A stretch of DNA of 64,000 nt from Thermoplasmatota archaeon (GTDB lineage: Archaea > Thermoplasmatota > JAKEGO01): the NCBI GenBank assembly GCA_028279595.1, contig JANQNK010000004.1, positions 160,001-224,000 of the forward strand. The letters are read 5' to 3'. Under the pieces are notes generated by a model. The model made no database searches. It was not told where the DNA came from and saw nothing but the letters and a program-made list of their open reading frames with translations. Position numbers and translations under genes: made by a program. Positions 14,031 to 56,681 of this stretch are shown piece by piece (the stretch's first letter is position 1; every line of letters starts with the position of its first letter).

Positions 14031-14035
14031 CTCAT

Positions 14036-18828: not shown

Positions 18829-18829
18829 G

Positions 18830-29839: not shown

Positions 29840-29850
29840 CCGCTCTCCCT

Positions 29851-31092: not shown

Positions 31093-31134
31093 CACGATTA
31101 GGAATGTAAGGATGTTATTTCATACATCCGGTGC

Positions 31135-32064: not shown

Positions 32065-32065
32065 T

Positions 32066-33130: not shown

Positions 33131-33142
33131 GTTTGGTGCCTC

Positions 33143-34063
33143 CTACCAGATGAAATCCTCCGGGTCGGCCGTGTCGCACGTCCCGAACATGCTGTCGTCC
33201 TCGGGATCGACCCCCGCCTCTACGTCGTAGCGTTCCTTCGCCTTCCACTCCAGGTACCTGTTGATCTTCCTGATGGGGATGTCCACGGGGCAGACGCGCT
33301 CGCACTCGCCGCAGTCGACGCAGCGGCCGGCGAGATGCATCGCCCTCACGAGGTGGTAGAACGTGTTCTCGGGCAATTGCACCGACTTCTCGTTCCACCT
33401 GTAGGGCTTCTCGCGGTCGAACACGCACTCCTCGCAGTAGCACAGCGGGCACGCCTCGCGGCATCCGTAGCACCGGACGCACCTCTCGAGCTGGCGCTCC
33501 CAGTACTCCCACCTCTCCTGCGGGGTCATTGCCTCCAACTCGGCCACGTCCGAGTAATCGTCTGTTATCGTTTCAGGGACCGCCTCGCCGCAGACGACGT
33601 CTGCGATCAGTGGATTGTGATGCGTGCATACGAGGCATTTACCGGCGATGTTCTCATCGGTCACCGCGGGCGGCTGCTTTTCGGACCCGTCCACCTTCTT
33701 GGTGTCGCAGACGCCCTCGCATGTGACCCCGATGATCTTGACGCGCTCCCGTGCGACGATGTTCTCCTTCATGAGCTCGACGATGGTCTTCGAGTCGCAC
33801 GGCTTGACGACGATGCCGATCGGCGTCGTGTCGAGCTCCTCGCCACGTCCGGGTCTGGTCTGCATCTCCTCCACGAGGAAGAGCGTCAGGTTGTTGACGC
33901 ACATGGAGTTCCATACAAGCTTGTCAGCGTCTTCCGGTCTCCGGACGAAGGCGACCTTCGTGCCTGCGCGGCGGCCCTGTTCGAACCCGACGACGTACTT
34001 GACCTCTCCGGACTCGAGCCATCCGCGTGCGGTGTCCTGGATCTGGCCCTGGCGGTCCGTCAT
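33143..34063 (-). CDS. flxC: FlxC-like 4Fe-4S subunit
   Basis: True start is ATG 34063, overlapping the flxD stop (ATGA). [40 protein letters not shown]. Confidence 0.85.
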
Positions 34064-34500
34064 TGGCCACCACCTCCGGCCATCTTGGTCTGGGGGCCAA
34101 GCTCCCTGACCTGTTCCGTGAACTTGGTGACCACTTCCGCGAACTTGTGGCCCTCGGATGCCGAGACCCACGAGAGCTGGAACCGACCTGGATCGATGCC
34201 CATGTGGTCCATCAGGTCGTGCAGCAATGTCAGCTTTCGCCTCGCATGATAGTTGCCCTTGATGTAGTGGCAGTCGCCCGGATGACATCCGGAGACGAGC
34301 ACACCGTCCGCTCCCTCCTGGAACGCTTTCAGAATGAACTGGGGATTGACCCGGCCAGAGCACATCACCTTGATGATGCGGATGTTGGACGGATACTGCA
34401 GCCTGGACGTCCCTGCGAGGTCGGCGCCCGTGTAGCTGCACCAGTTGCACAGGAATCCCAGGATCTTCGGCTCGAAATCGTTCTTCGCGTCGTCAGCCAT
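34060..34500 (-). CDS. flxD: MvhD/FlxD [2Fe-2S] subunit
   Basis: [34 protein letters not shown]. Confidence 0.92.
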
Positions 34501-37500: not shown

Positions 37501-37680
37501 GCCCTCCATCTTGCGCTTGCGGGAATGGATCGCTGTCTCTGCGACGATGGCCGCATCGCTCTCAGCCTGGGGCCACTCGTCGTCGAGCTTCGCTATCTCC
37601 GGCACCTGGATCAGGTAGTCGTCCTCAAGGGGGACGTCCTCGTAGTACTGCGGAATTATTCCATCACTCTGGTCGGGCAT
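34501..37680 (-). CDS. hdrA: Large double-FAD heterodisulfide reductase A-like protein (copy 1, flx-linked)
   Basis: GAGISG...LDKTFPTNDC, CVGSR..CSRVCC, CHCG domain, second GGGLSG FAD module, C-terminal 2x[4Fe-4S]. Confidence 0.92.
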   Translation of the reverse strand: MPDQSDGIIPQYYEDVPLEDDYLIQVPEIAKLDDEWPQAESDAAIVAETAIHSRKRKMEGDVLIVGAGISGMQAALDIADKGYRVILIDKSSTIGGNMVKLDKTFPTNDCSICTSAPKMVEVSRHPNITLLTYAEIADLKGEAGNFTARVYRKSKYVDPDKCTGCDDCTPVCPVDVISVFDEKLAKRKAIYIEFPQAVPIVYTIDYEACVGCGSCERVCEPGAISFLEKSEDIEVKVGSVIVATGYELFEPVEMRREYGYGKYPNVITAMQFERLLSSFGPTEGKARRPSDGEKPESIAWIQCVGSRSKQLGWPYCSRVCCMYATKEASIQKETDPETDVSIFYMDLRAYGKDFQQYYDKAKDMGVEYIRARPSSVYENEDKSITIRYMDTHTREVKEKTVEMLVLSTAIIPSQENQRLAEVLGIDVDESGFFQVKSIMTDPIESTRDGVYLAGCDQGPKDIPDSVAMASGAAAKAISDIVDRDQAEAVEPPEQKDVTGEKPRIGVFVCHCGKNINGYLDCKEVADYIGEQPYVEYATDIMFACSEDTQKDIREKIEEEGLNRVIVAACSPITHGGLFQDTMVEAGLNKYLFEFANIRQHCSWVHSHDREEATQKAKDLVRMSANKSALLEPLEQEEVSVIPSVLIVGGGLSGMRAALALSDMKIKTYLLEKDPELGGMLRRLHTLFPSDVKASDIIDPLIKRVSESEFITVMTGSTLEDIEGFIGNFEATINTPGGEEKLEFGTAIIASGFGEIDLTGRYGYGDSEKIMTQTELEERIEAGTLEKPKTVVMVNCAGAMEPERPYCCRVGCGVSIKNAKMIKEMYPDSDVYILYRDIRVFGKDEEEYFTDVIEGKRVKIVRYTYEEQPEVAVDDDGNVMVTVHDSIYGDTLELPADLVVLTAQTEGNESVEGLMEMFKIPAGPGRYLIEAHAKIRPLDFATDGVYFCGSAHFPKNLADTIAQSEGAASRAAIPIMKGTLVLEGITANVLEEICSGCGLCVAACPFSAIDLESGKAIVNTALCKGCGVCTATCRAGAIQQKGFKDEQILSMIKGAMHEVY

Positions 37681-38203
37681 TCTTACCAGCCTCTAATCCT
37701 CTCTCGAATGCGTTCACGTTGAGGTCTATGAACCGCTTCGGCACGCTGTCTACTACGGCCTTCTTGACGGACTCCGGGTCGAGGAGGTCGTCGATCCCGG
37801 CCATGGCACCCACCATCGCGATGTTGGTAACGATCTTGTTACCCAGGTCCTCTGCGATCTTCTGGACCCTGACCTTGTAGATCGGCCGACCTATGTCGTG
37901 GTTCGGCACGAGGTCTGGATCGATGATAATGACTGTGTTCTCATGCAGATCGTCGCGATACGTGTTGAAGGCCTCCTGGGCCATCGCCACGTACAGGTCC
38001 ACGCCGGTCGGGCGCGGGTATCCGATCTTCTCGTCCGAGATCAGGACCTCGGAGCGGGCGGCGCCTCCGCGGGCCTCGGGTCCGTATGACTGGCTCTGGA
38101 CAGCATTGAGGTCTCCGAACACGCAGGCTGCCTTTCCCCAGATGAATCCGGCCAGGATCACTCCCTGACCGCCGAAACCGCAGATCCTCACTTCACGTTT
38201 CAT
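37664..38203 (-). CDS. korC: 2-oxoacid:ferredoxin oxidoreductase gamma subunit
   Basis: GFGGQGV, QSYGPEARGG. The 2-oxoglutarate specificity is inferred from context. Confidence 0.88.
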   Translation of the reverse strand: MKREVRICGFGGQGVILAGFIWGKAACVFGDLNAVQSQSYGPEARGGAARSEVLISDEKIGYPRPTGVDLYVAMAQEAFNTYRDDLHENTVIIIDPDLVPNHDIGRPIYKVRVQKIAEDLGNKIVTNIAMVGAMAGIDDLLDPESVKKAVVDSVPKRFIDLNVNAFERGLEAGKNARPE

Positions 38204-38205
38204 GT

Positions 38206-39084
38206 TCAGACCCCCCACTTCGCGTCGTCCTGCTCCATCAGTCTCGTGGTCATCTTGTCATACTCCCCGAAGAAGCCGGACCTCTCCTGATGCTGGAACA
38301 CGCCGATCTTGATCTTGTTCTTGGCGGCCGCGATCTCCTCCTCGGTTCCGTAGTCCATGATCCGGTCGTAGTCCTCCATGAGCATGGTGTTATCCTCGTA
38401 CCACGTCCATAGCGCGTCGATCTTGCCCAGCTTGTTCCTCCGGCCGTAGGCCGTCGGACAGGGGGACATGAGCTCGACGAGTCCGAAACCCGGTGTCGAG
38501 AGGGCGTCCTTGATGGACTTGATCGGCTGGTACGGATAGAAGACGGGCCAACGAGCCACGTACGCTGCTCCGAGGGCCTGGGTCAGTTCGGATATGTTGA
38601 ACGCATGCTCGATGTTCCCGTAAGGTGCGGTTGTGGCGATACTGCCCTTCGGCGCCGTCGGGGCCAGCTGTCCGCCGGTCATCCCGTAGATGAAGTTGTT
38701 CAGCAGGATCACTGTCATGTCGATGTTCCTCCGGGCAGCGTGGATGAAATGGTTTCCGCCGATCCCGGTGGCGTCGCCGTCGCCGGTGAAGACGATGACG
38801 TGCAGGTCGGGGTTCGCCGCCTTTATCCCGGTCGCGAACGCGATGGCGCGACCGTGCGTGGTGTGCAGGCCGTCCGCGCTGACGTACCCGGGTATCCTCG
38901 ACGAGCAGCCGATACCGGATGCAAGAGCAACGTCGTCCATGTCGATCCCGAGCTCCTCTATGGCCCAGAACACGTAGTCCAGCGAGTTGCCGTGGCCGCA
39001 TCCGTTGCAGAAGATGGTCGGCAGCATTCCGTCCCTAAGGTACTTCTCCCTCAGCTCGTTCGCGTTGATCATGTCCTCGACCAT
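38206..39084 (-). CDS. korB: 2-oxoacid:ferredoxin oxidoreductase beta subunit
   Basis: CNGCG, GIGCSS, HTTHGRA, TPP motif GDGD...GGN...NN, SPCPT. Confidence 0.9.
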   Translation of the reverse strand: MVEDMINANELREKYLRDGMLPTIFCNGCGHGNSLDYVFWAIEELGIDMDDVALASGIGCSSRIPGYVSADGLHTTHGRAIAFATGIKAANPDLHVIVFTGDGDATGIGGNHFIHAARRNIDMTVILLNNFIYGMTGGQLAPTAPKGSIATTAPYGNIEHAFNISELTQALGAAYVARWPVFYPYQPIKSIKDALSTPGFGLVELMSPCPTAYGRRNKLGKIDALWTWYEDNTMLMEDYDRIMDYGTEEEIAAAKNKIKIGVFQHQERSGFFGEYDKMTTRLMEQDDAKWGV

Positions 39085-40265
39085 CAGCTCACCTCCAGCA
39101 TCTCTAACAGTTCCTGTGGCAGGTGCATCTCACCGCCTATCTTCGGGGCCAGAACGATCTCACAGCCGGGATCGGAGTACTCGACTATCGGGTGGTACAT
39201 CTGGCCTAGGTTCATCTCCGGGACGATTATCTTGTCGACCTGCTTGGAGACCTTGTTGACGATGTGCCTCGGGAACGGCCAGCAGAGCTTCATCCGGAGC
39301 ATTCCCGCCTTGATCCCCTTCGCTCGGGCCATGGCGACGGCGCTCTCAGCGGGTCTGGCGGACGCACCGTATGTGACGAACGCCACCTCTGCGTCCTCGA
39401 GTTCGATCTCCTCGACGTCGGTCATCTCCTCCCGGTCGTCGGTTATCTTCGTGATTATCCTCATCACCAACCGCTCGTGGTCCGGCTGCTTGTCGGTCTT
39501 CGGGAATCCCTTGTCATTGTGTGTCAGTCCAGTGACGTATGTGCGGTATCCCGATCCGAACGTCGGGAAGTCGGGCACCTTGCTTCCGGTGGTCGGCGAT
39601 TCCGCGAACGGAAGGAAGGTCTCCTTGTCCGTGGTCGCCTCGACCCTCTCGATAAGGGGCATCTCCTCCTCCTCCGGGATGACGACCTTCTCCCTCAGAT
39701 GTCCGACCTCCCCGTCGGTCATCAGGCACACCGGGTGCCTGTACTTCTCCGACAGGTTGAACGAGTCGATGGTCATGTCCAGGCACTCCTGCACGGTACT
39801 GGGGGCGTAGGCTATCGCCTCCATGTCGCCGTGGGTGCCCCATCGCACCTGCATCATATCGCCCTGGGCGCCGAGGGTCGGCTGACCCGTGGACGGCCCC
39901 GTCCTCTGGACGTTGGCGATGACGCAAGGCGTCTCGGTCATGATCGCGTAACCGTAGTTCTCCATCATCAGCGAGAATCCGGGTCCAGACGTCGCTGTCA
40001 TCGCCTTCGCACCGCCCCATGCGGCGCCGATGACTGCGGCTATGCTTGCGATCTCGTCCTCCATCTGGATGAAGCATCCGCCAACCCGCGGGAGCAGCCG
40101 GGCCATGCCCTCAGCCACCTCTGACGCAGGTGTGATCGGATATCCCCCGAAGAACGACACCCCAGACAGAAGCCCGCCGTATGCGACGGCCATGTCTCCC
40201 TGGATGAACTGTACCTTCTCGCCGAGGACCTTCCTGATGCGTACTGGGTCCCTCTCATACTTCAT
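39084..40265 (-). CDS. korA: 2-oxoacid:ferredoxin oxidoreductase alpha subunit
   Basis: GYPITPASE, QMEDE, TATSGPG, QRTGPSTG, EMNLGQ. Confidence 0.9.
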   Translation of the reverse strand: MKYERDPVRIRKVLGEKVQFIQGDMAVAYGGLLSGVSFFGGYPITPASEVAEGMARLLPRVGGCFIQMEDEIASIAAVIGAAWGGAKAMTATSGPGFSLMMENYGYAIMTETPCVIANVQRTGPSTGQPTLGAQGDMMQVRWGTHGDMEAIAYAPSTVQECLDMTIDSFNLSEKYRHPVCLMTDGEVGHLREKVVIPEEEEMPLIERVEATTDKETFLPFAESPTTGSKVPDFPTFGSGYRTYVTGLTHNDKGFPKTDKQPDHERLVMRIITKITDDREEMTDVEEIELEDAEVAFVTYGASARPAESAVAMARAKGIKAGMLRMKLCWPFPRHIVNKVSKQVDKIIVPEMNLGQMYHPIVEYSDPGCEIVLAPKIGGEMHLPQELLEMLEVS

Positions 40266-40512
40266 TAGCTACACCTCCGATGATGAGCCCGCTCTTCGAC
40301 TCCTCCTTCCTCTCCTCCGCGACCACGGTGATCGCGAAGTCCGGACAGAGCAACTCGCAGAGCCGGCAGTAATTGCATTCGTTCTCCTCCTTCAATTTGG
40401 GTGGATAGACGCCTCGCTTGTTCAGCTCGTCGGATGTCTCGAGAGCATGGACCGGGCACCTCCTGACGCATATATCGCAGCCCTTGCACCAGTCCTTGAT
40501 CACCTCGATCAT
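40255..40512 (-). CDS. korD: 2-oxoacid:ferredoxin oxidoreductase delta (ferredoxin) subunit
   Basis: CKGCDICVRRCP and CNYCRLCELLCPDFAI. Confidence 0.88.
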   Translation of the reverse strand: MIEVIKDWCKGCDICVRRCPVHALETSDELNKRGVYPPKLKEENECNYCRLCELLCPDFAITVVAEERKEESKSGLIIGGVANEV

Positions 40513-40526: not shown

Positions 40527-42176
40527 TCATAGGATGTCCAGAGCCCTGGCCAGAGTATCCTGGCCCCTGTATTCCGGCAGGATCGCCGGGGCGGTCATAT
40601 CGCTGACTATGCTTGCGTCCTCGAGGGCCTTGTTGTACTTGTCGATGTGGGCCATCGAGAGCTTTCCGATCGAACTGCGCTTCTTGACCAGTTCGGCGAC
40701 CTTGATGCCGGCGCGCCTTCCGAAGACGTTGAAGTCGAGGAGGGAGTTGCCCATCAGCCTGTTCTTTCCGTGTACGCCGCCGGTGACCTCGCCTGCCGCA
40801 AGCAGGCCGGGCACCCCGGTCTCGCACCACTCGTTGATCTCGACGCCGCCGTTCTGATAGTGCAGTGTCGGGTAGACGAGGATCGGGTGCTTGGTCATGT
40901 CGATGCCGAAGCGCTTGAACTTGCGGACCTCTCCCGCAAGCTTCTCCTCGATCGTTCCCTCTCCGTGGATGATATCTATCATCGGTGCGTCGAGCCACAC
41001 GCCCGGCATTCCCGTCGGTGTGGTTATCCCGCGGCACTCGTCGCACTCCTTCAGGAACATAGCGGACTCGACATCCCTCGGTTCCAGCGGGAACACGAAC
41101 GGGTCGCCGTCCTTGTTGAGCGGCTTGCCGCCCAGGCCCCGGACCTTCTCCGTGGTCAGGATGCCGACGACCGCTTCGGGATAGGCGTCGCCGGTCGGAT
41201 GGATCTGTATGGTGTCGAGGTCGAGCAGGTTCGCACCTGCATGATAGGCCATAATCAGGCCGTCCCCGGTCGCTCCGTAGTGGTTCGTGGTCGGATAACC
41301 GGAAAGATGAAGTCGCCCAGAGCCTCCCGTGGCCATCACGACGGCCTTCGCCCTGATGACCTGGTACTCGTTGGTCTCGATGTTGAACGCTACTCCGCCG
41401 GAGACAGTTCCTGTATCGTCCAGCAGCAGCTCGACGACCGGGCAGAACTCGAGCGTCGGTATGCTCAGGTTCCGCGAGCGGTCGCGGATGTTGCGCATGA
41501 TCTCCATGCCGCTGTAGTCCTTGGCGCTGTGCATGCGGTTCCTGCTGGTCCCGCCGCCCGACAGCTCCTGGAACTCGCCGTCGTCGTGCCTGTCGTACAT
41601 GACGCCGAGGTCGACGTGCCACCTGATGATCTCGGGCGCGTCCATTGCAAGTGCACGGGCGAGCTCCGGCTTGTTCGTGAAGTGGCCTCCGCCGTAGATG
41701 TCCAGGTAGTGGATGGACGGACTGTCGATAGCCCTGTCCGCAGCCTGGATGCCGCCTTGGGCCATCATGGAGTTGGCGTCGCCGTGCCTCAGCTTCGTTG
41801 TGATGAGTATCCTGTCCGTCGGGACGCCGTGATCGTGTGCGAATATCGATGCTACGGTTCCTGCGCCCCCGCCTCCGATGATCAATACGTCGACGTCGTA
41901 GTCGACCTTCGATAGGTCGACCGCCGACGTGTCGAGCGCCGACCTGGCCTCGAGGAGGTCGACGATGCCGTTGTATATCAGGTCGCCCTTGTTGGGGCCG
42001 ATCCCGACCTCGCGGCGCGTGCCCTCCATGAAATCGGGGTGGTAGTTCTTCAGCACCTCCTCCCTCTCCTCCATGGTGAGCGGCGTCACGGCCGTCTCGA
42101 TGTTCTTCTCCCTCTTCTCCTCGATGAGCTTGATGGATTCCATCATGTAGTCGGGGTAGCCGTCTATGATCTCCAT
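40527..42176 (-). CDS. Soluble fumarate reductase/succinate dehydrogenase flavoprotein (TfrA-like, non-covalent FAD)
   Basis: GGGGAG; ANSMMAQGG with Asn at the covalent-His position; QIHPTG, TEKVRG, EPRD, HYQNGG, HGKNRLMGNSL. Confidence 0.88.
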   Translation of the reverse strand: MEIIDGYPDYMMESIKLIEEKREKNIETAVTPLTMEEREEVLKNYHPDFMEGTRREVGIGPNKGDLIYNGIVDLLEARSALDTSAVDLSKVDYDVDVLIIGGGGAGTVASIFAHDHGVPTDRILITTKLRHGDANSMMAQGGIQAADRAIDSPSIHYLDIYGGGHFTNKPELARALAMDAPEIIRWHVDLGVMYDRHDDGEFQELSGGGTSRNRMHSAKDYSGMEIMRNIRDRSRNLSIPTLEFCPVVELLLDDTGTVSGGVAFNIETNEYQVIRAKAVVMATGGSGRLHLSGYPTTNHYGATGDGLIMAYHAGANLLDLDTIQIHPTGDAYPEAVVGILTTEKVRGLGGKPLNKDGDPFVFPLEPRDVESAMFLKECDECRGITTPTGMPGVWLDAPMIDIIHGEGTIEEKLAGEVRKFKRFGIDMTKHPILVYPTLHYQNGGVEINEWCETGVPGLLAAGEVTGGVHGKNRLMGNSLLDFNVFGRRAGIKVAELVKKRSSIGKLSMAHIDKYNKALEDASIVSDMTAPAILPEYRGQDTLARALDIL

Positions 42177-42941
42177 TCAGTCACCCCCCCCCTCGTCGAG
42201 GTCTCCGCTGGCCTCGATCTTGCGCTCGCTGTAGAGCTTCTCCATCTTGCCCCGCTCCATGGTCATGAGGTCCTCGATCTCAGCGTCGTACTTGCCGTCC
42301 TCGATCTCCTTCAGCCGGACCACGAGGTCGCCGGACCGCTTGTCGAGGTACTTGCCGAACAGACGCCGGGCGAGCTGGGCCACGTGATAGTGCTTGATGT
42401 CGGCGGGACAGCGCATGGCGCACATCCCGCACTGGATGCAGTCGAACGAGAGCTCGGCCGCCTTGGCGATGTCGCCCCTCAGTGCGTTCTGGATGTACAT
42501 CATGACCTTGATGTCCTGCGGACAGGCCTTGGTGCACGTGTTGCACGAGACGCATCGGGCTATCTCCGGATAGATCGCCAGGATGGCGTTCTCGTCCGGG
42601 GTGAGCTCGTAGATATCGTACTGGGCCCGGTTCGCCGGCACGAAGGGTATCTGCACCAGGTACATCCCGTCCTCGACGAGCGTCTGGCACGCGAGGGCGA
42701 AGTGGAGCTTCTGCTCGTCCTCCTTCCTGTACACCGTCGAGCAGGCGCCGCAGAAACCTGCCCTGCAGCCGCAGCTCCTGATGTACTGGTACCCCGCGTA
42801 TTCGATGGCCTTCATTATGGTGAACCCGACGGGCACCCTGTACCTCTTGCCCATCACGAATATCTCGATGGTCCCCTCTTCATGGGTCTCGCATTCCGTT
42901 GCCTCTCGGTCCTCTGTAATGGCGTCAGTTGCGCCGGTCAT
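42177..42941 (-). CDS. Fumarate reductase Fe-S subunit ([2Fe-2S] plus 2x[4Fe-4S])
   Basis: GCRAGFCGAC...LACQT; CVSCNTCTKACP; CIQCGMCAMRCP; directly upstream of the flavoprotein. Confidence 0.85.
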   Translation of the reverse strand: MTGATDAITEDREATECETHEEGTIEIFVMGKRYRVPVGFTIMKAIEYAGYQYIRSCGCRAGFCGACSTVYRKEDEQKLHFALACQTLVEDGMYLVQIPFVPANRAQYDIYELTPDENAILAIYPEIARCVSCNTCTKACPQDIKVMMYIQNALRGDIAKAAELSFDCIQCGMCAMRCPADIKHYHVAQLARRLFGKYLDKRSGDLVVRLKEIEDGKYDAEIEDLMTMERGKMEKLYSERKIEASGDLDEGGGD

Positions 42942-43831
42942 GTGCTTCCCTCCGATATGGGTAGGACCCCCTTCTCCTCCAGAAGGGGGGTCGGGTCCAC
43001 GGCGTGCGCGCCGAAGCCCCAGTCGCCCTCGAGCCCGAGGGCGATGGCTAACAGTTGAGTGTAATACATCACGGGGATCTGGGAGTATCCATCGAACAGG
43101 AGCTCCGCCTCCTTACCCCTCTGGTCGATGTTGTACTTGCAGAGCGGGCAGGACAGCATGATGAGGTCCGCGTCACGCTCCACGGCGTACGTGGAGATGG
43201 TCTTCGCCCGCCTCGACGTCATCTCCTTCTCCTCGATGGTCTTGTACGACCCGCAGCACTCGATCTTGTACGGGTTGTCCACGACCTCTGCGCCGAGGGC
43301 CTTTATCAGGTCGGCCATTATGCGCGGTTCCTCCGCGTCGTCGATGGCCACCTCCCTCGGGCGGAGGAGCATACAGCCGTAGTACGGCATTATCCTGACG
43401 CCTTTCAGAGGGTTCACGACCTTCTTTTTGAGCGTCTTCCACCCGACATCGTCTCGGAGGAACTCGAGGAAGTGCTGGACGGAGACCGTCATCCTGTAGT
43501 CGTTCTCCTGGTCCATGAAGTCGTTAAGCGTCTTCAGGTCGTCCTCCCTCTCGCGGACGCGGTAATCGGTCTGCTTCAGCGTGTTCGAGCACATGTCGCA
43601 GAGGGTGACGATCCTGTCCATGCCCTGGTCCTCGGCATGGACAAGGTTCCTCAGGGGAGCGAGATGATGCATGAGGTCGTCCTCGGTGAGGGATGCGGAA
43701 ACGCCGCAGCAGTTCCACTCCTCCATCTCGATCATACTGTGCCCGAGGGCCTCTGCCACAGCGAACGCTGATTCCTCTAGGTTCACCGCCGACGTCTTCA
43801 GCGTGCATCCTGGATAGTAGAGCAGTTCCAT
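42938..43831 (-). CDS. hdrB: HdrB-like CCG-domain subunit (fumarate-reductase-linked copy)
   Basis: YYPGC, WNCCG, CDMC, YYGC, ECCG, CPLC, YYTQLL. Confidence 0.9.
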   Translation of the reverse strand: MELLYYPGCTLKTSAVNLEESAFAVAEALGHSMIEMEEWNCCGVSASLTEDDLMHHLAPLRNLVHAEDQGMDRIVTLCDMCSNTLKQTDYRVREREDDLKTLNDFMDQENDYRMTVSVQHFLEFLRDDVGWKTLKKKVVNPLKGVRIMPYYGCMLLRPREVAIDDAEEPRIMADLIKALGAEVVDNPYKIECCGSYKTIEEKEMTSRRAKTISTYAVERDADLIMLSCPLCKYNIDQRGKEAELLFDGYSQIPVMYYTQLLAIALGLEGDWGFGAHAVDPTPLLEEKGVLPISEGST

Positions 43832-43837
43832 GTTAGC

Positions 43838-44269
43838 TCAACCTATGTTCTTCCTGAAGAGACTGACGAAGGCCATCTGCGGGATCGACCTCTTCTCCTC
43901 GTCGGTGAGGCATTCGAGGTCGGTCTCGTCGATGTTCTGGCGAAGGACTATCTGCCTGAGGGCCTCCATTATCTTGGTAATGTTGATATCCCTCGGGCAC
44001 CGCTCGGCGCAGGCGAAACACGATGCGCAGAGCCAGATAGTCTTGGATTCGAGGACCTCCTTCTTGTCGAGAATGACATATCTCAGTACCTCATCCACAG
44101 TGAGGTCCATCTCGTCCATGAACGGGCATCCTGCGGCACATGTGCCGCATTGATAGCAACCGAACACGTCCTCCTCGCAAAGGCCCTCCAGCTCATCGAT
44201 CAACTTCCCGCTGACAACTATATGCTTATCAGCGGAGTCCTGGCAGCCCCCTTCGGTTTCTGTTGCCAT
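43838..44269 (-). CDS. hdrC: HdrC-like 2x[4Fe-4S] subunit
   Basis: ATG 44269 after GGAGG; CYQCGTCAAGCP, IWLCASCFACAERCP. Confidence 0.88.
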   Translation of the reverse strand: MATETEGGCQDSADKHIVVSGKLIDELEGLCEEDVFGCYQCGTCAAGCPFMDEMDLTVDEVLRYVILDKKEVLESKTIWLCASCFACAERCPRDINITKIMEALRQIVLRQNIDETDLECLTDEEKRSIPQMAFVSLFRKNIG

Positions 44270-44329
44270 TGATCGTCCTCCGTCGCCATTCAGGCTCGTT
44301 AACGCGGGCTGGCGCTGGTGCTTTCGGTA

Positions 44330-44420
44330 AGGTTTCCGAATATATATTCTTTCTGGCATTTCGAAGGCCAGGAAACGATGAATTTTCATAAAAAAGCGTT
44401 ATACGTTACGAATATGTTAT
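44330..44420 (-). promoter_or_regulatory. Internal AT-rich promoter region for hdrC-hdrB-frd-kor-hdrA-flx
   Basis: Largest gap (214 nt) in the 24-gene run; TATA-like elements and a 12-bp palindrome GAATATATATTC (44338-44349). Confidence 0.5.
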
Positions 44421-44483
44421 GGCTGGTCCTTCGGGGTTTCCGTTTTCGTAATAATTGGGTGATTCGCTCAACCGCGGCTTCCA

Positions 44484-47400
44484 CTAGAGGACCTCGCAGA
44501 GCGCTCCCTTGATCAGGGAGAGTATCTGCTCGTCCTTGAACCCCTTCTGCTGTACGGCACCGGACCTGCATGTCGCGGCGCATACTCCGCATCCCTTGCA
44601 GAGGGCCGTGGTGACGACTGCCTTCCCGTCCACGAGCTCGATGGCAAGATATGGACAGGCTGCCGCGCATAGGCCGCAGCCCGAGCAGAGCGCCTCGTTC
44701 ACCGACGATACGGTCGCCTCGGTCTCGAACTTGTCGCTCGATATTATGGTGCAAGCCCTCGAGGCGGCCGCATAGGCCTGGGCGATCGCCTCCCCGATGA
44801 ACTTCGGTGAATGGGCCATTCCAGCGAGGAAGACCCCCTCGGTGGAGAAGTCCACGGGCCTCAGTTTCACGTGCGCCTCGAGGAAGAAGCCGTCCTCGTT
44901 GAGCGGGACCTTCAGTAGCTTGCCGATGTCGGCGTTCCCGGGCTGCGGGATTATGGCCGGTGCGAGCACGACGAGATCGGCCTCGATCTCCAAGTCCATG
45001 TCGAGGATGTGGTCCCTGGTGCCGACGACCAGACCGTCCTTCCCCTTGGCGACGGTGGGCTTTCGGTCGAGGCTGTAACGTATGAATATGACGCCTTCGG
45101 CGCGGGCCCTTTCGTAAAGGGTCTCCTTGAACCCGTACGTGCGCATGTCACGATATAGGACGTAGACGTTCGCGTCCGGATGCGCCTCCTTTATCGCGAG
45201 CGCGTTCTTGACGGCGTCGGTGCAGCAGACGCGGCTGCAGTACGGCCTGTGCTCCTCCCTCGAGCCGACGCACTGGATCATCGCGATGGTCTTCCCGGAC
45301 AGGTCGGCCCCTTCTGCCATCATTCCCTCGAGGTCGAGCTGGGTGACGACGCGCTCGTCCTCGCCGAACAGGTACTCCTCTGGCTTGGACTCGACCGCGC
45401 CGGTGGCGACTATGACAACGCCGTGCTCGATCTCGATCTGGTCGCTGTCCTGCTCCACGGTGGTCCGGTAGTTGCCGATGTATCCGTCGATATCTATGAT
45501 CTGCGAGTTACTATGTACTGTAATGAGCGGGTTGGAGTCTACCTTCCCGATGGTATCGCGGAGGAATCCTTGCACGTCCATCCCCTCGCTGGAGTGATGG
45601 ATCCGGCGCATGACCCCGCCGAGTTCCGACTGTGCCTCGATCAGGTCCACCGGATATCCCTGCTCGGCGATGGCAAGGGCCGATATCATGCCGGACAATC
45701 CGCCGCCCACAACGAGGGCGGACTGCGTGATGTCCAGTTCGACCATCGGAAGAGGTTCGATTATCGAAGCCTTGGCGATGGCCATTCTGACCAGGTCCCT
45801 GGCCTTCTCGGTCGCCGTGGACCTGTCATCCATGTGGACCCACGAGCACTGGTCCCGGATGTTGGCCATCTCGAAGAGGTGGGCGTTGAGCCCGGCCTCG
45901 CGTATCGTGGCCTGGAAGAGCGGTTCGTGCGTCCTCGGCGTGCACGATGCGACGATGACGCGGTTAAGATGGTTCTCCTGGATGGTCTCGACGAAGCGCT
46001 TCTGGGTGTCCTGGGAGCAGGTGTAGAGGTTGTCTTCGGCATAGACCACGCCGGGCAGCCCCCTTGCGTAGTCGACGAGGCCTGGTACGTCGACGTAACC
46101 GCCGATGTTGATGCCGCAGTGGCAGATGAACACGCCGATCCGGGGGCCGACGCCCGTGACGTCCAGCTCGGGCGGGAGCGCCTTCCTCTCCACCATTGTG
46201 TTCCTCGCCTCGGATATCAGGCCGCTGGCCTTCGCGGCGGCACCGGAGGCTTCCATGACCGTTTCCGGGATGTCCTTCGGACCGGAGAAAGCGCCGCAGA
46301 CGAACACGCCGTCCCTGGACGTCTCGACGGGGCACTCCTCCTGGGTCTGGCAGAAGCCCCGCTCGTTGAGGTCGATCCCCATGCGGCCGGCCAGGTCGCG
46401 GGAGTCCTCCTTGGACGTGAACCCGACCGACAGGACGGCCATGTCGAACTCCTCCTCGATGAGCTGTCCGTCCTCGGTCTCGTACTGGATCGTCAGGTCG
46501 TGGGTCTCCGGGTCCTCCTTGATCTCCGATATCCTGCATCGCAGGAAGCGGACCCCGTACTCGTCCTTAGCCCGGTTGTAATATGATTCGAAGCCCTTGC
46601 CGAAGGTCCGCATGTCCATGAAGAAGATGGTCGGTTCTATTGACGGTACATGCTCCTTGGCTATGACGGCCTCCTTGATGGCGTACGTGCAGCAGACCGA
46701 TGAACAGTAGTCAGCGCCGCAGCCCAGGTCCCTGGACCCGACGCACTGGACCCACGCGATCTTCTTCGGCTGCTTGCCGTCCGAGGCCCTCAGTACATGG
46801 CTCTTGTACGGGCCTGATGCGGAAAGTATGCGCTCGAACTCGATGCTCGAGACGACGTTGGGGAATCGGCCGTGACCGTACTCGCCCTTCTGGTCGGAGT
46901 CGAACTCCTCGAACCCGGGACAGAGTATGATCGATCCGACGTTGATCTCCGACAGTTCGTCCTTGTCGTCGTAGACGATGGCGTCGGCAAGGCAGAGGTT
47001 CTCGCATAGCCCGCAGCCGATGCACTTCTCCCTGTCGATGGCGAATGCCAGGGGCACCGCCTGGGGGTACATGAGATAGATCGCACGCCTTTCCGAAAGG
47101 CCCTCGTTGAAGACGGAGACGGCGTCGATGGGGCACTCCTTGGCGCAGACGCCGCATCCCGTGCACTTCTCGACGTCCACGTATCGCGCCTTCTTCCTGA
47201 TCTTGACCTTGAAGTCACCGGCCTCGCCCTCGACGGACTCGACCTCGGAATATGTGATTAGTTCGATGTTGGGATGTCTTCCGACGTCCACGAGCTTTGG
47301 GGCCATGATGCACATGGAGCAGTCGTTCGTCGGGAACGTCTTGTCCAGCTGGGCCATCGTCCCGCCGATCCCCGGCGATGAGTCGAGGAGATAGACCTTG

Positions 47401-47492
47401 AAACCCGAGTTGGCCAGGTCGAGGGACGACTGCATCCCGGCGATCCCGCCTCCGACCACGAGAACGGCTCCGACCTTGTTCTCGGCCGTCAT
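44484..47492 (-). CDS. hdrA: Large double-FAD HdrA-like protein (copy 2)
   Basis: True start ATG 47492 (ATGA overlap); GGGIAG, QLDKTFPTNDC, two CVGSR..CC motifs, CHCG, C-terminal ferredoxin. Confidence 0.92.
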   Translation of the reverse strand: MTAENKVGAVLVVGGGIAGMQSSLDLANSGFKVYLLDSSPGIGGTMAQLDKTFPTNDCSMCIMAPKLVDVGRHPNIELITYSEVESVEGEAGDFKVKIRKKARYVDVEKCTGCGVCAKECPIDAVSVFNEGLSERRAIYLMYPQAVPLAFAIDREKCIGCGLCENLCLADAIVYDDKDELSEINVGSIILCPGFEEFDSDQKGEYGHGRFPNVVSSIEFERILSASGPYKSHVLRASDGKQPKKIAWVQCVGSRDLGCGADYCSSVCCTYAIKEAVIAKEHVPSIEPTIFFMDMRTFGKGFESYYNRAKDEYGVRFLRCRISEIKEDPETHDLTIQYETEDGQLIEEEFDMAVLSVGFTSKEDSRDLAGRMGIDLNERGFCQTQEECPVETSRDGVFVCGAFSGPKDIPETVMEASGAAAKASGLISEARNTMVERKALPPELDVTGVGPRIGVFICHCGINIGGYVDVPGLVDYARGLPGVVYAEDNLYTCSQDTQKRFVETIQENHLNRVIVASCTPRTHEPLFQATIREAGLNAHLFEMANIRDQCSWVHMDDRSTATEKARDLVRMAIAKASIIEPLPMVELDITQSALVVGGGLSGMISALAIAEQGYPVDLIEAQSELGGVMRRIHHSSEGMDVQGFLRDTIGKVDSNPLITVHSNSQIIDIDGYIGNYRTTVEQDSDQIEIEHGVVIVATGAVESKPEEYLFGEDERVVTQLDLEGMMAEGADLSGKTIAMIQCVGSREEHRPYCSRVCCTDAVKNALAIKEAHPDANVYVLYRDMRTYGFKETLYERARAEGVIFIRYSLDRKPTVAKGKDGLVVGTRDHILDMDLEIEADLVVLAPAIIPQPGNADIGKLLKVPLNEDGFFLEAHVKLRPVDFSTEGVFLAGMAHSPKFIGEAIAQAYAAASRACTIISSDKFETEATVSSVNEALCSGCGLCAAACPYLAIELVDGKAVVTTALCKGCGVCAATCRSGAVQQKGFKDEQILSLIKGALCEVL

Positions 47493-48253
47493 TCCGACAC
47501 CTCCCCGACGAGTATGTAGCGTGGGTCGTCGTCCACGATGTCCATCATGTGGACCTGTCCGGCGTTCTCGAGGTCGATCATGTACTTGAAGACCGTCGCC
47601 GTGTCCATCTCGACCGCTTCGGCGATCGATGGGACCGTCGCGGGCGATCCGGCCCTGATGGCGGACCGTATCAGTTCCCGGTTGTACTCGTTCACTATAT
47701 TGTTCCACAGGATGTCCTTCAGTTCGGCCTCGTCGAGCTTGTCGCCGTAGACGTTGCCGTGGTCGACCATGTCCCGCTCCTTGCCGACGAGCCATCGGAT
47801 GCGGTCCATCGAGGCGATCTTCTCACCGACCGCTGCCTTCGGTCCGGCGTCAGCCGCGTCGAGCGGTCCGAGCTCCCGGATGCGCTCGGTGAAGTCCGTG
47901 ATGACCTCGCCGAACCTCTGGCCCTCGGCGGCCGAGACCCAGTCGAGGAGCAAACGGTCGGGGTCGATGCCGACCTTCTCCATGACGCGGAAGGTCAGGT
48001 CCATCTTCCTCTCGGCCTGGTAGTTGCCTGTGAGGTAATGGCAGTCGCCCGGATGGCAGCCGAGGACCGCGACGCCGTCCATACCGTTCCTGAACGCCTC
48101 GAGTACGTGGAGCGGGTCCACCCGGCCGGAGCACATGACGCGGATGACCCGCATGTTCGGAGGGTACTGGACCCGCGAGACACCGGCGAGGTCCGCGCCC
48201 GCGTAGGCGCACCAGTTGCAGAGGAATCCGAGGAGCTTGGGTTCGTAGGCCAT
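47489..48253 (-). CDS. mvhD: MvhD-like [2Fe-2S] protein fused to a C-terminal winged-helix-like domain
   Basis: Start ATG 48253; [27 protein letters not shown]; ~120-aa extension ending ATVPSIAEAVEMDTATVFKYMIDLENAGQV. Confidence 0.85.
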   Translation of the reverse strand: MAYEPKLLGFLCNWCAYAGADLAGVSRVQYPPNMRVIRVMCSGRVDPLHVLEAFRNGMDGVAVLGCHPGDCHYLTGNYQAERKMDLTFRVMEKVGIDPDRLLLDWVSAAEGQRFGEVITDFTERIRELGPLDAADAGPKAAVGEKIASMDRIRWLVGKERDMVDHGNVYGDKLDEAELKDILWNNIVNEYNRELIRSAIRAGSPATVPSIAEAVEMDTATVFKYMIDLENAGQVHMMDIVDDDPRYILVGEVSE

Positions 48254-51200
48254 CAGGCCACCCCCCTGTAGGCCTCGATCTGGGCCGTGATCTCCTCGTT
48301 CGTGAAATGCTTCATGGTGATGGCCAGCTTCGGACAGCTTGCTCCGCAGACGCCGCAGCCCTTGCACGATGCGGGGATGACCTGAGCCTTGCGTCCGCCC
48401 TCCTTCAGAACTAGCTCCATGGCCTTGAAGGGACAGTTGGTGACGCACAGACCGCAGCCGATGCACATCTCCTCGGTGATATCGGCAATGGCGGGATTGA
48501 CCCTGACCTCGCCCTTGGCGAGCAGTGTCGAAGCCCTTGCGGCCGCAGCGTACGCCTGTGCAATGGACTCTTCCATCGTCTTCGGGGAGTGTGCCATGCC
48601 GGCGAGGAAGACGCCGTCCGTGGCGAAATCGACAGGACGCAGCTTGACATGCGCCTCGAGGAAGAAACCGTCCTCGTTGAGGGGGACCTTGAGCATCTTC
48701 GCCAGGTCGACCCTGTCGGGGCGCGGCTCGATGGCCGGTGCCAGTGCTACTATGTCCGCCTCTATGAAGAGCTCTTCGCCGAGTATCTTCTCCTTGACCT
48801 TGACCGTCAGCGCATCGCCGTCAGTGTCCACGGCGGGCTTGCCGTCCAGGTCGAACCGGACGAACACGACGCCGAGCTCCCTTGCGCGGCCGTAGTGGCT
48901 CTCCTTCAATCCATACGTGCGCATGTCCCTGTAGAGGATGTAGACCTGTGCCGATGGGTCAGTTTCCTTGATCCTGATGGCGTTCTTGATGGCGTCCGAG
49001 CAGCAGACGCGGCTGCAGTACGTGTGGCTCTCGTCCCTTGAACCGACGCACTGGATCATGGCGACGGTCCTCCCGACCGGTTCGCCCTCAGCGATCCGTC
49101 GCTCCAGCTCCGTCTGTGAGATGACGCGCTCGTCCTCGCCGAAGAGGTACTCCGCAGGTGCCGATTCGACCGCGCCTGTCGCGACGATTATCGCACCATG
49201 CTCGACCCTCTCCGGGCCGTCCGGCGTGTCTATGACCGACTCGAAGTTGCCGACGAAGCCGCCGATCTCCGAGACCTTCGCGTTGAGGTGGACATCGATG
49301 ATGTCGCTCTCCCCGATCCGGTCCACGAGCGAGCCCAGGTATTCCTGGACGTTGTCATTGTCAAGTGTGTAATGTATGTTCCTCATGTTCCCGCCGAGAG
49401 CGTCCTCCTGTTCGACGAGTGATACTCCGAAGCCCTGGTCCGCAAGGGCGAGGGCAGCGGTCATTCCCGCAAGTCCGCCGCCGATCACGAGGCCGTGCTG
49501 GATGACGTCCAGTGAGAGTTCCTCGAGGGGTTCGATGTGCGCCGCCCGAGCGACGGACATCCGGACTAGGTCCTGCGCCTTCTCGGTCGCGGTGGCCTTG
49601 TCGTCCATGTGGACCCACGAGCACTGGTCCCGGATGTTGGCCATCTCGAAGAGGTGGGCGTTCAGACCTGCCTCCCGAAGCGTCTCCTGGAATAGGGGTT
49701 CGTGCGTCCTTGGAGTGCACGAGGCAACGAGCACGCGGTTCAGCCCATGCTCCTTGATCCGGTCGATGAGCGTGTGCTGTGCGTCCTGGCTGCAGGAGTA
49801 GATGTTCTCCTCGGCGTGGACGACGTTCGGCAGTCCCCTGGCGTACTCCACGACCGCGGGCACGTCGACGTAGGCACCGATGTTGATGCCGCAATGACAT
49901 ACGTAGACGCCGATCCGCGGCTCCTCGCCGGAGACGTCGCGCTCGGGGACGAACTCGCGCTCCTCGACGAGAGTCCCGCGTCCGGACGATATCATCGCGC
50001 CAGCCTTCGCGGCCGCGCCGGAGGCCTCCATCACGGTCTCCGGGATGTCCTTCGGACCGGAGAATGCGCCGCAGACGAAGACGCCTGGTACGTCGGTCTC
50101 CATGGGCCTCGTCTCCTCGGTCTCGCAGAAACCGAAGTCGTCCAGGGATATGCCGGCCGTCTCGGCGAGGTCCTTGACGCCCTCGCCCGGCTCCAGGCCG
50201 ATGGAAAGGACGACCATGTCGAAGGTCTCCTCCCTCAATGCCCCTTCCTCGCTCTCGTACCTTATCCTGAGGTCCTTCCCGGGGGTCTCCTGGACCTCCG
50301 AGATCCTGGACCTTATGAATCGGATGCCATGCTGGTCCTCGGCGCGGTTGAGATAGGACTCGAAACCCTTGCCGTGGGTGCGCATGTCCATGTAGAAGAT
50401 GGTCGGCTCGACGGAACCGGAGTGCTCCTTGGCGATTATGGCCTCCTTGATGGAGTAGGTGCAGCAGACGGAAGAGCAGTACTCGTTCCCGCATGACCTG
50501 TCCCTGGACCCGACGCAGTTGATCCAGGCGATCCTTTTCGGCTCCTTCCCGTCGGACGGCCTGAGCACGTGACCTTCGTACGGACCGGAGGCAGAAAGTA
50601 TCCGCTCGAACTCGAGGGACGTCACGACGTTGTCGAAGCGGCCGTAGCCGTATTCGCCCTTCGCCTCTGCGTGGAAACCCTCGAACCCGGGCGCCATGAC
50701 GATCGACCCTACCTCGACGGTGCGTTCGATATCCTGCATGTCGAAATCGATTGCGTTAGCGGGGCAGGCCTCGACGCACTTCATGGCGCACTTGCCGGTC
50801 TTGACCTGGAGGCAGTTGACGGGATCGACGACGTACCGGAGCGGTACGGCCTGGGGATATGGGATGTAGATCGCGCTCCTCTCCTTCAGCTCCTCGTCGA
50901 ACTCGTTCCTGAGACGCCCCTTGAGGACGCATGCCTCGGCGCAGAGGTTGCATCCGACGCAGGCCTCGGTTACGCGGCGTGCTCTTTCGGTGATCTTGAC
51001 GGTGAAGTCGCCCGCCTTTCCGTCGATCGCAGTGACCGACGAGTTCGTCATCAATTCTATGTTCGGGTGCCTGCCGACGTCCACGAGCTTCGGCGACAGG
51101 ATGCAGAGGGAACAGTCATTGGTTGGAAATGTCTTGTCGAGCTGTGCCATCGCCCCGCCTATCGCGGGCTTGTCCTCCACCATGTAGACCTTGAAGCCGG

Positions 51201-51279
51201 CGTCGGCCAGGTCGAGTGCGGACTGGATGCCACCAATGCCGCCCCCGACTACCAGCACAGCGCCGACCGGGTCGCTCAT
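48253..51279 (-). CDS. hdrA: Large double-FAD HdrA-like protein (copy 3)
   Basis: Same architecture as copy 2; directly follows hdrC-hdrB. Confidence 0.92.
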   Translation of the reverse strand: MSDPVGAVLVVGGGIGGIQSALDLADAGFKVYMVEDKPAIGGAMAQLDKTFPTNDCSLCILSPKLVDVGRHPNIELMTNSSVTAIDGKAGDFTVKITERARRVTEACVGCNLCAEACVLKGRLRNEFDEELKERSAIYIPYPQAVPLRYVVDPVNCLQVKTGKCAMKCVEACPANAIDFDMQDIERTVEVGSIVMAPGFEGFHAEAKGEYGYGRFDNVVTSLEFERILSASGPYEGHVLRPSDGKEPKRIAWINCVGSRDRSCGNEYCSSVCCTYSIKEAIIAKEHSGSVEPTIFYMDMRTHGKGFESYLNRAEDQHGIRFIRSRISEVQETPGKDLRIRYESEEGALREETFDMVVLSIGLEPGEGVKDLAETAGISLDDFGFCETEETRPMETDVPGVFVCGAFSGPKDIPETVMEASGAAAKAGAMISSGRGTLVEEREFVPERDVSGEEPRIGVYVCHCGINIGAYVDVPAVVEYARGLPNVVHAEENIYSCSQDAQHTLIDRIKEHGLNRVLVASCTPRTHEPLFQETLREAGLNAHLFEMANIRDQCSWVHMDDKATATEKAQDLVRMSVARAAHIEPLEELSLDVIQHGLVIGGGLAGMTAALALADQGFGVSLVEQEDALGGNMRNIHYTLDNDNVQEYLGSLVDRIGESDIIDVHLNAKVSEIGGFVGNFESVIDTPDGPERVEHGAIIVATGAVESAPAEYLFGEDERVISQTELERRIAEGEPVGRTVAMIQCVGSRDESHTYCSRVCCSDAIKNAIRIKETDPSAQVYILYRDMRTYGLKESHYGRARELGVVFVRFDLDGKPAVDTDGDALTVKVKEKILGEELFIEADIVALAPAIEPRPDRVDLAKMLKVPLNEDGFFLEAHVKLRPVDFATDGVFLAGMAHSPKTMEESIAQAYAAAARASTLLAKGEVRVNPAIADITEEMCIGCGLCVTNCPFKAMELVLKEGGRKAQVIPASCKGCGVCGASCPKLAITMKHFTNEEITAQIEAYRGVA

Positions 51280-56378: not shown

Positions 56379-56652
56379 GGGATTCTCGTTATTCTGGAGC
56401 GGATGGAAGCGAAATTTTCGCGTTCTATCGCCCCTGTGCAGGCAGGGCAACGAAGAAGGACCCTTTGTCTTATTTTAGATTTCCGCTTCCCCGCGGTGAA
56501 AAGGATAAACAGGATATTACCGAGTGTGTAAATTGACAAGCCCGTCCGAGGGGCTTGGGAGCGACCGTTCCGATGTATTGTAACAACGCCGGGGACGGAC
56601 GTAACGTTTTATCGGATATCTGTGTCCAGGCGTCCGCTTGGCAGGGATATTC

Positions 56653-56660: not shown

Positions 56661-56681
56661 CGGACCTGCCTTACCGACCCT

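Follow-up and report, generated by a model that had tools for sequence, protein, structure and literature searches.

An anchor-less fumarate reductase-like module in an archaeal HdrA, Flx, and 2-oxoglutarate oxidoreductase gene row, proposed as the high-potential outlet of electron bifurcation

What HdrABC-type complexes reduce where the heterodisulfide of coenzymes M and B (CoM-S-S-CoB) is absent is a long-standing question, and it is raised again by a 64-kb stretch of a Thermoplasmatota genome (the window, analyzed over its whole length). Four consecutive minus-strand genes in it encode an HdrC-like protein, an HdrB-like protein, an SdhB/FrdB-like iron-sulfur protein (the FeS protein), and a flavoprotein of the Sdh/Frd superfamily, and they are followed by genes for a 2-oxoglutarate:ferredoxin oxidoreductase (OGOR), HdrA, and Flx-like proteins. 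The gene association suggests fumarate as one answer. We consider it somewhat more probable than an even chance (roughly 55%) that the four gene products form a soluble fumarate reductase without membrane anchor, which acts as the high-potential outlet of NAD(P)H-driven bifurcation by HdrA and serves a reductive citric-acid cycle. If this is true, the cycle, or its reductive branch to 2-oxoglutarate, could obtain low-potential ferredoxin from NAD(P)H, driven by the reduction of fumarate, and the energy cost of CO2 fixation would be lowered in many uncultured anaerobes.

The flavoprotein matches the Pfam domain PF00890 over residues 96–479 (215.7 bits) and carries the dicarboxylate catalytic set of the Sdh/Frd/NadB superfamily. 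In the alignment to Escherichia coli FrdA, it keeps H326/T328, T342/E343/R346, R367, H439, and R473 (H232/T234, T244/E245/R248, R287, H355, and R390 in FrdA), and N135 occupies the position of the His that binds flavin adenine dinucleotide (FAD) covalently. N135 and the catalytic residues are invariant in an alignment of 54 family members with the exception of T342, conserved in at least 90% of them. The two marks of complex-II SdhA and FrdA, the FAD-linking His and the C-terminal domain PF02910, are thus both missing, the latter giving no match in the Pfam search. Alignments to SdhA, FrdA, NadB, and TfrA all end near residue 500 of 549, that to the TfrA profile covering positions 6–422 of 546, and the C-terminal helical domain is therefore absent. 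The AlphaFold model (mean pLDDT, the predicted local distance difference test, 92.4) has E. coli FrdA (1kf6_A) as its best fold match, with a TMq of 0.69 over ~450 columns. An N-terminal extension of 92 residues is conserved, with H46, P47, G60, and G64 invariant or nearly so, and is confidently folded (pLDDT >90). A preliminary description of the locus, made from the sequence, had pointed out the retained catalytic residues, the Asn in place of His, and the seemingly missing C-terminal domain, and the alignments bear out all three. It had overlooked the N-terminal extension, a second, canonical SdhAB in the genome, and the HdrA/Flx/Oor context.

By its residues the flavoprotein is Tfr/Frd-like, yet judged from profile scores and phylogeny it is not TfrA. 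The TfrA equivalog NF004900 gives it 310.8 bits (cutoff 718), the NCBIfam sdhA_frdA model 262.6 bits (cutoff 567), and the NadB model TIGR00551 249.1 bits (cutoff 452.75). In a tree of 99 sequences, comprising cluster representatives, the canonical SdhA of the genome, and E. coli SdhA, FrdA, and NadB, the flavoprotein family forms its own well-supported clade (98 in the Shimodaira–Hasegawa-like approximate likelihood ratio test, SH-aLRT), which adjoins a group of short flavoproteins of about 400 residues. A separate clade of 63 sequences (SH-aLRT 99) joins NadB, SdhA/FrdA, and a true TfrA (P0187, 765 bits, above the NF004900 cutoff) and excludes the family. Constraining the family and the TfrA group into one clade, a group that was named after the tree had been seen, costs 175.7 log-likelihood units and is rejected by the approximately unbiased (AU) test (p 0.0002). 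On these grounds we rejected TfrA as the identity of the flavoprotein, and the earlier assignment as a thiol:fumarate reductase is, as far as it implies a TfrA, not supported by the comparison with TfrA, FrdA, SdhA, and NadB that had been proposed as its check. The neighboring clade consists of PF00890 flavoproteins of ~400–415 residues (P0146, P0155, P0165, P0170, P0178, and others) that have neither the N-terminal extension nor a C-terminal domain; the two members scanned, P0146 and P0165, gave no NCBIfam match at E ≤ 1e-95.

The three partner subunits retain a complete set of cluster ligands. The FeS protein has a Fer2_4 domain and a 4Fe-4S dicluster domain (Fer4_9, Pfam), and 48 homologues all retain C59, C64, C67, and C85 of the 2Fe-2S site as well as the two CxxCxxCxxxCP motifs; from these motifs its third cluster is assigned as [4Fe-4S], as in TfrB and the type-E succinate dehydrogenases. 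The HdrB-like protein has exactly ten Cys residues, all invariant in 48 homologues, arranged in two CX31–38CCX34–35CXXC motifs (C9/C41/C42/C78/C81 and C153/C192/C193/C228/C231) that correspond to the duplicated HdrB motif CX31–39CCX35–36CXXC. Its score on TIGR03288 (149.6 bits, cutoff 345) places it outside the methanogen HdrB equivalog, as far as profiles can tell. The HdrC-like protein scores 81.8 bits on TIGR03290 (cutoff 160), and its dicluster motifs at C38 and C81 are likewise invariant in 48 homologues. Positions 19–82, 131–241, and 264–485 of the TfrB model NF004898 match the FeS, HdrC-like, and HdrB-like proteins respectively, all far below the cutoff of 385, and the modules that TfrB carries on one polypeptide are spread here over three proteins, as the preliminary description had supposed. 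It had also noted that the four genes abut or overlap and that no cytochrome or quinone anchor lies beside them, and the open reading frame (ORF) coordinates and the neighboring genes agree: six nucleotides separate the hdrC-like and hdrB-like genes, the hdrB-like and FeS genes overlap by 4 nt (ATGA), the flavoprotein start directly abuts the FeS-gene stop, and no anchor gene adjoins the module. No sufficiently hydrophobic 19-residue window for a membrane helix was found in any of the four proteins. A longer ORF for the HdrC-like protein (to 44389) was rejected, given that a Shine–Dalgarno sequence (GGAGG) precedes the ATG at 44269 by 7 nt and that the extra 40 residues are basic and unconserved.

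Physical links between subunits of the module are supported by a natural fusion and by modeling. In P0126, a cluster representative of 727 residues, the FeS protein is fused to the N terminus of a flavoprotein 45% identical to that of the window, a fusion that can be read as a "Rosetta stone" for the FeS-flavoprotein pair. When the HdrC-like and HdrB-like proteins were modeled together with the FeS protein as partner, the complex scored 0.84 (best control 0.00), with a contact agreement between runs of at least 96% and a partner pLDDT of at least 66. The score mark applied is reached by 58 of 80 solved complexes and two of 110 mismatched pairs, counts that are only rough for models made with our own alignments. 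The modeled interface is formed by FeS residues 114–157, around the C130–C140 cluster, and HdrB residues 8–14, 38–43, and 54–61, and adjoins the N-terminal CCG ligands C9, C41, and C42; the same FeS residues also contact the C-terminal tail of HdrC. The model supports, without proving, a four-subunit assembly with a short cluster-to-cluster path.

The module stands within a 12-gene unit, hdrCB-frdBA-oorDABC-hdrA-flxCBA, with overlaps or short gaps throughout; oorDABC begins 14 nt past the flavoprotein stop, and the last of the three Flx-like genes encodes an FAD/NAD(P)-binding AsrB/HydG-like protein. This arrangement is not peculiar to the window. Close homologues of the flavoprotein (75–89% identity, 546–553 aa) all come from metagenome-assembled genomes of Thermoplasmata or Thermoplasmatota. 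A survey with one genome per species gave at least 593 loci, of which the best 80, with flavoproteins 51–77% identical over their full length, were examined after mapping the window proteins onto them, the flanks being limited to 10 kb. Their archaeal hosts are Thermoplasmatota, Theionarchaea, Bathyarchaeota, and Heimdall-, Thor-, and Culexarchaea, and their bacterial hosts Aminicenantes, WOR-3, Bipolaricaulota, Chloroflexota, Cloacimonadota, Deltaproteobacteria, Gallionella, and Bacillota; among the close relatives of the Gallionella-type homologue (L076) are proteins of Chromatiaceae (Thiodictyon) with 77–78% identity. By sequence, then, this is a distinct flavoprotein family that remains more than 50% identical across archaea and bacteria. 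The FeS gene adjoins the flavoprotein gene in 78 of the 80 loci. The 53 loci that span at least 12 kb include 45 with HdrB, 44 with HdrA, 37 with HdrC, 32 with Oor, 27 with MvhD, and 24 with Flx-like genes. Of all 80 loci, ~19 have succinyl-CoA synthetase (SucCD) and ~12 class-I fumarase within 10 kb. The conserved neighborhood is the strongest argument for fumarate/succinate as the substrate and for a functional tie to HdrA and OGOR.

Four deltaproteobacterial or Thermodesulfobacteriota loci (L055, L066, L077, and L084) carry a second flavoprotein paralogue of 32–35% identity, followed in L066, L077, and L084, downstream of the Oor genes, by an HdrB1-like CCG protein; these genes may encode a type-E Sdh that accompanies the Hdr-linked enzyme.

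For the fumarate reductase that we favor, NAD(P)H would enter via the Flx-like proteins, and HdrA would split electron pairs by flavin-based bifurcation. The high-potential branch would pass from HdrC to HdrB, the FeS protein, FAD, and finally fumarate, for which E0′ is about +33 mV. The low-potential branch would reduce ferredoxin, with which the adjacent OGOR would carboxylate succinyl-CoA and, together with ATP-citrate lyase, aconitase, isocitrate dehydrogenase (IDH), SucCD, Mdh, and fumarase, a reductive citric-acid cycle would be driven. Genes for almost all enzymes of this cycle flank the Hdr/Frd/Oor row within the window. Where Sdh/Frd enzymes lack covalent FAD, as do the His mutants of FrdA and SdhA, flavocytochrome c3, and TfrA, they reduce fumarate and oxidize succinate poorly, so non-covalent FAD would favor the reductive direction. 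The module had earlier been called soluble, reductive, and thiol-linked and was thought to support the reductive direction of the cycle. Solubility agrees with the lack of a predicted membrane helix; reduction, and with it the direction of the cycle, fits the missing His and the ATP-citrate lyase, aconitase, IDH, SucCD, OGOR, Mdh, and fumarase genes of the window; a thiol link is not shown by the genes, which place the module in an Hdr/Oor/Flx unit.

The conserved hdrA/oor/flx association and the modeled FeS-HdrB contact point to NAD(P)H as the electron source and to HdrA, HdrC, and HdrB as the route, whether or not a thiol lies in between. Outside the cluster, neither Hdr genes nor an Mvh-type partner were found in the genome, which is 86% complete, and its sole [NiFe] hydrogenase large subunit is encoded on another contig (C10) beside HydB/HydG-like genes; NAD(P)H via Flx is therefore the likely donor. 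An Mvh-type hydrogenase was rejected as donor, the arrangement on C10 being group-3b-like and having no Hdr linkage. A wider proposal, taken as a whole, falls in our judgment somewhat short of an even chance: the non-cubane clusters of HdrB would relay electrons into the SdhB-like wire instead of reducing a disulfide, fumarate rather than a heterodisulfide would be the physiological high-potential acceptor of HdrA bifurcation in many non-methanogenic archaea and bacteria, and the assembly would drive 2-oxoglutarate synthase as a bifurcating NAD(P)H:fumarate/ferredoxin oxidoreductase. In this window, a lipoyl-GcvH shuttle between the two HdrBC pairs is a possible second layer.

Several points weigh against a bifurcation-fed fumarate reductase. 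We found no published biochemistry for any member of the flavoprotein family, and the literature search gave no paper with the phrase "electron-bifurcating fumarate reductase." The HdrB-like protein keeps both CCG motifs complete, which in methanogen HdrB form the disulfide-reducing site, and may for this reason carry out a thiol/disulfide step. A dithiol shuttle would suit the window, with its additional HdrBC pair, lipoate ligase, and GcvH-like protein. Learned HdrBC or SdhB-like interfaces may account for part of the complex score, which is no proof of binding in the cell. Besides the incompleteness of the genome, there is its canonical SdhAB (G000 C10, L007:8193-10711; SdhA 750 bits on TIGR01812), which could carry the fumarate/succinate step of the cycle. 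This SdhAB has no obvious membrane-anchor genes adjoining it, and a C_GCAxxG_C_C-family ORF overlaps the region downstream.

The main rival is a lipoyl-protein shuttle, for which the lipoate ligase, the GcvH-like protein, and the additional HdrBC pair speak; we regard it as unlikely, at perhaps one chance in four. The four proteins would then be a free-standing thiol:fumarate reductase, the enzyme type of the preliminary description, in which the CCG site of the HdrB-like protein oxidizes a dithiol (the best candidate being the dihydrolipoyl arm of the GcvH-like carrier), the FeS protein passes the electrons to fumarate, and the disulfide is re-reduced by the other set, HdrC1B1-HdrA. Intact CCG motifs and the presence of all TfrB modules suit such an enzyme, as do the two HdrBC pairs of the window, the lipoate-protein ligase in the same gene row, and the GcvH paralogue 11 kb downstream. 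A GcvH homologue also lies within ~7 kb of the flavoprotein gene at five of the 80 loci (L023, L068, L070, and L087, and directly beside it in the Culexarchaeum locus L034), and the paper on Culexarchaeia, where SdhA, HdrA2B2C2, and GcvH occur together, raised the same idea (PMC9723716). However, many related loci have a single HdrBC pair beside HdrA and the FeS-flavoprotein genes (within the 10-kb flanks), and therefore no separate disulfide-reducing and dithiol-oxidizing sites; GcvH occurs within 10 kb in just ~6 of 80 loci; GcvP is encoded in the genome besides two GcvH copies, so at least one copy may serve glycine cleavage; and the flavoprotein stands outside the TfrA clade.

An OsmC-family gene lies directly upstream of that for the GcvH-like lipoyl carrier. 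OsmC/Ohr peroxidases use lipoyl proteins as reductants, and the pair may for this reason form a lipoyl-dependent peroxidase system, instead of or besides an Hdr partner.

Operation in the oxidative direction is considerably less probable. As a soluble succinate dehydrogenase, the module would lift electrons to NAD(P)+ by confurcation with reduced ferredoxin from 2-oxoglutarate oxidation, in amino-acid or oxidative citric-acid-cycle catabolism. Hdr/Flx systems are reversible in principle, OGOR can operate oxidatively, and many hosts of the flavoprotein family are peptide fermenters. The invariance of N135 speaks against it, given the poor succinate oxidation of enzymes without covalent FAD, as do the ATP-citrate lyase and other reductive-cycle genes clustered here and the canonical SdhAB elsewhere, which is available for oxidation.

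It is less probable again that the enzyme is an L-aspartate oxidase, or another 2-enoate or amino-acid oxidoreductase that is merely homologous to fumarate reductases. NadB likewise carries Asn or Ser in place of the His and shares the catalytic residues, no member of the flavoprotein family is characterized, and the flavoprotein does score on the NadB model. That score lies below the cutoff, however, and the flavoprotein falls outside the NadB clade; instead of standing alone as NadB does, it is encoded beside an SdhB-like partner gene, and its neighborhood consists of fumarase, SucCD, and OGOR. Since the genome encodes an aspartate dehydrogenase (Asp_DH_C) besides NadA, it can do without NadB; this identity was accordingly rejected as unlikely. 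A quinone-linked type-E succinate:quinone oxidoreductase (SdhABE-like), attached peripherally to the membrane via its CCG subunit, is the least probable of all. In its favor, the HdrB-like protein scores on the SdhE model of methylmenaquinol:fumarate reductase (135.9 bits), and type-E enzymes share the CCG subunit and the [4Fe-4S] in place of [3Fe-4S]. Against it, the score lies below the cutoff of 500, and the module has no hydrophobic or amphipathic anchor subunit, no SdhF, and no covalent His, contains an extra HdrC, and keeps its synteny with HdrA and MvhD.

Among known systems, the closest counterparts are gene clusters of the reductive citric-acid cycle. Rubin-Blum et al. (2019; PMC6315080) found korABCD and tfrAB interspersed with flxABCD-hdrABC in such clusters of tubeworm symbionts and Thioflavicoccus and put forward an electron-shuttling complex that serves OGOR and Tfr; most of that cluster is co-expressed, with tfrAB as the stated exception (Mitchell et al. 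2024; PMC11636981). Williams et al. (2021; PMC8542988) described an Mvh-Hdr/TFR/OGOR/fumarase/SucCD cluster in Cloacimonadota (Ca. Celaenobacter), and a 2026 survey repeats the idea of a bifurcating fumarate reductase as a proposal (PMC13147460). In Thermoprofundales, aclAB and frdAB were initially reported absent (PMC6461988), and a later member encoding the reductive cycle has a "putative fumarate reductase flavoprotein" (PMC11287216). By published gene content, the clusters of Endoriftia, the Escarpia symbiont, Thioflavicoccus mobilis, and Celaenobacter resemble ours in combining an anchor-less Tfr flavoprotein and FeS protein, HdrBC, HdrA, Flx, and four-subunit OGOR among aclAB, acn, idh, and mdh, and for them too a bifurcation that supplies fumarate reductase and OGOR has been proposed. 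The window contains all of the Flx-like, HdrA, HdrBC, MvhD/FlxD, and OGOR genes, an anchor-less Frd pair, and reductive-cycle genes including aclAB. Unlike the tubeworm-symbiont type, its host is archaeal, it has three double-length HdrA, a second HdrBC, a lipoate ligase, and GlcD/GlcF-like genes, and no Rnf or PntAB was found within the 64 kb. The module is thus an archaeal member of a known and widespread cluster type, published in 2019 and 2021 and proposed from genomes, and our literature search found no bench test of this fumarate reductase arrangement. Relative to the cited papers, three findings seem to be new: a flavoprotein clade of its own, marked by the N-terminal extension and the absence of the C-terminal domain; the natural FeS-flavoprotein fusion; and the modeled FeS-HdrB contact. 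With cycle enzymes and redox machinery on one 64-kb stretch, the locus is also a clean archaeal example that could guide heterologous expression.

More distant likenesses are found in characterized enzymes. The thiol:fumarate reductase TfrAB of Methanothermobacter, said to have been reported by Heim et al. in 1998, is likewise soluble, without the covalent-FAD His and without an anchor, has a 2Fe-2S, two [4Fe-4S], and two CCG modules, and serves a reductive branch towards 2-oxoglutarate. In contrast to TfrA, the window flavoprotein has no C-terminal domain and 92 additional N-terminal residues, and in contrast to TfrB its modules lie on three polypeptides; we saw no sign of methanogenesis-type Hdr usage in the organism, no search having been aimed at CoM/CoB. 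The MvhADG-HdrABC complex of methanogens (structure 5ODC) and FlxABCD-HdrABC of Desulfovibrio, reportedly described by Ramos et al. in 2015, share HdrC with two [4Fe-4S] and HdrB with two CCG motifs downstream of a bifurcating HdrA, as well as Flx-type NAD(P)H input. They differ in that here an SdhB-like protein is, in the model, attached to HdrB, and with it probably a fumarate-reducing flavoprotein, and fumarate may replace the heterodisulfide or the DsrC disulfide as terminal acceptor. The type-E SdhABEF and the methylmenaquinol:fumarate reductase SdhABE resemble the module in the CCG subunit on an SdhAB core and in the third cluster being [4Fe-4S]; however, their SdhA is full-length and binds FAD covalently, their chemistry involves quinones at the membrane or in the periplasm, and they have no HdrC or HdrA partners. 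The passage of the 2026 survey that summarizes Miura et al. (2008) describes FrdABCDE of Hydrogenobacter thermophilus as a soluble, multi-subunit, NADH-dependent, irreversible fumarate reductase of the reductive citric-acid cycle (PMC13147460). By this description, it is similar in solubility, subunit number, role in the cycle, and use of a pyridine-nucleotide donor. Its genes are reportedly dispersed in the genome, and it is not known to bifurcate.

The features of the window are collected in Table 1. The row that holds the module continues upstream with further Hdr genes, a GlcD/GlcF-like pair, and a lipoate-protein ligase gene, and contains in total three double-length HdrA genes and two HdrBC pairs. 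Its sole long gap is the AT-rich spacer that precedes the hdrC-like gene, and this spacer is a possible internal promoter.

Table 1. Coordinates of the module, its gene row, and other features of the 64-kb window.
Feature	Coordinates	Strand	Remarks
HdrC-like subunit, 143 aa	43838-44269	minus	two CxxCxxCxxxCP [4Fe-4S] motifs
HdrB/SdhE-like subunit, 297 aa	42938-43831	minus	two complete CCG motifs, PF02754 twice
SdhB/FrdB-like iron-sulfur subunit, 254 aa	42177-42941	minus	2Fe-2S and two [4Fe-4S] sites, without 3Fe-4S motif
Sdh/Frd-superfamily flavoprotein, 549 aa	40527-42176	minus	Asn135 for covalent His, 92-aa N-terminal extension, without C-terminal domain
AT-rich spacer, 214 bp	44270-44483	minus	precedes hdrC-like gene; contains aaagaatatatatt and cttttttatgaaaatt
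oorD-oorA-oorB-oorC, four-subunit 2-oxoacid (2-oxoglutarate-type):ferredoxin oxidoreductase	37664-40512	minus	NF006412, 541 bits, over cutoff; NF007207 KorB-type, 271 bits
Double-length HdrA2-like flavoprotein, 1059 aa	34501-37680	minus	NF040770 HdrA2, 1031.9 bits; 17-nt overlap with oorC
Flx-like NAD(P)H input module, three genes	31135-34450	minus	435-aa FeS protein, AsrA/HydB-like FeS protein, AsrB/HydG-like FAD/NAD(P)-binding protein
HdrA, same row, upstream	44484-47795 (ORF reach)	minus	true start uncertain: overlaps mvhD
MvhD-like	47489-48253	minus	upstream in row
HdrA	48253-51279	minus	upstream in row
HdrB1	51276-52163	minus	upstream in row
HdrC1	52160-52648	minus	upstream in row
Lipoate-protein ligase	52650-53699	minus	upstream in row
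GcvH-family lipoyl-carrier protein	28913-29341	minus	PF01597, 138 bits; candidate protein-bound dithiol
OsmC-family protein	29402-29884		directly upstream of GcvH-family gene
Monomeric IDH	8621-10861		
AclA and AclB (ATP-citrate lyase)	10896-14039		
Aconitase	14036-15988		
SucCD	17608-19702		
Malate dehydrogenase	56622-57563		
Fumarase, class-I	62333-63193		
LarA-family racemase	29851-31095		directly after Flx-like genes
LarA-family racemase	60543-61778		
Secreted or surface protein, 2261 aa	22025-28810		

At 1103 aa, the longest ORF of the HdrA gene immediately upstream of the spacer extends ~300 nt into the MvhD-like gene. Because the first domain match begins at about residue 110, the true start is probably downstream, giving a protein of ~1000 aa.

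The redox cluster is flanked by two genes for LarA-family racemases, for which lactate, malate, or 2-hydroxyglutarate are candidate substrates. The 2261-aa secreted or surface protein combines many parallel-β-helix-like NxxI repeats with an acidic tail and a transmembrane segment at the C terminus, and is unrelated to the redox cluster.

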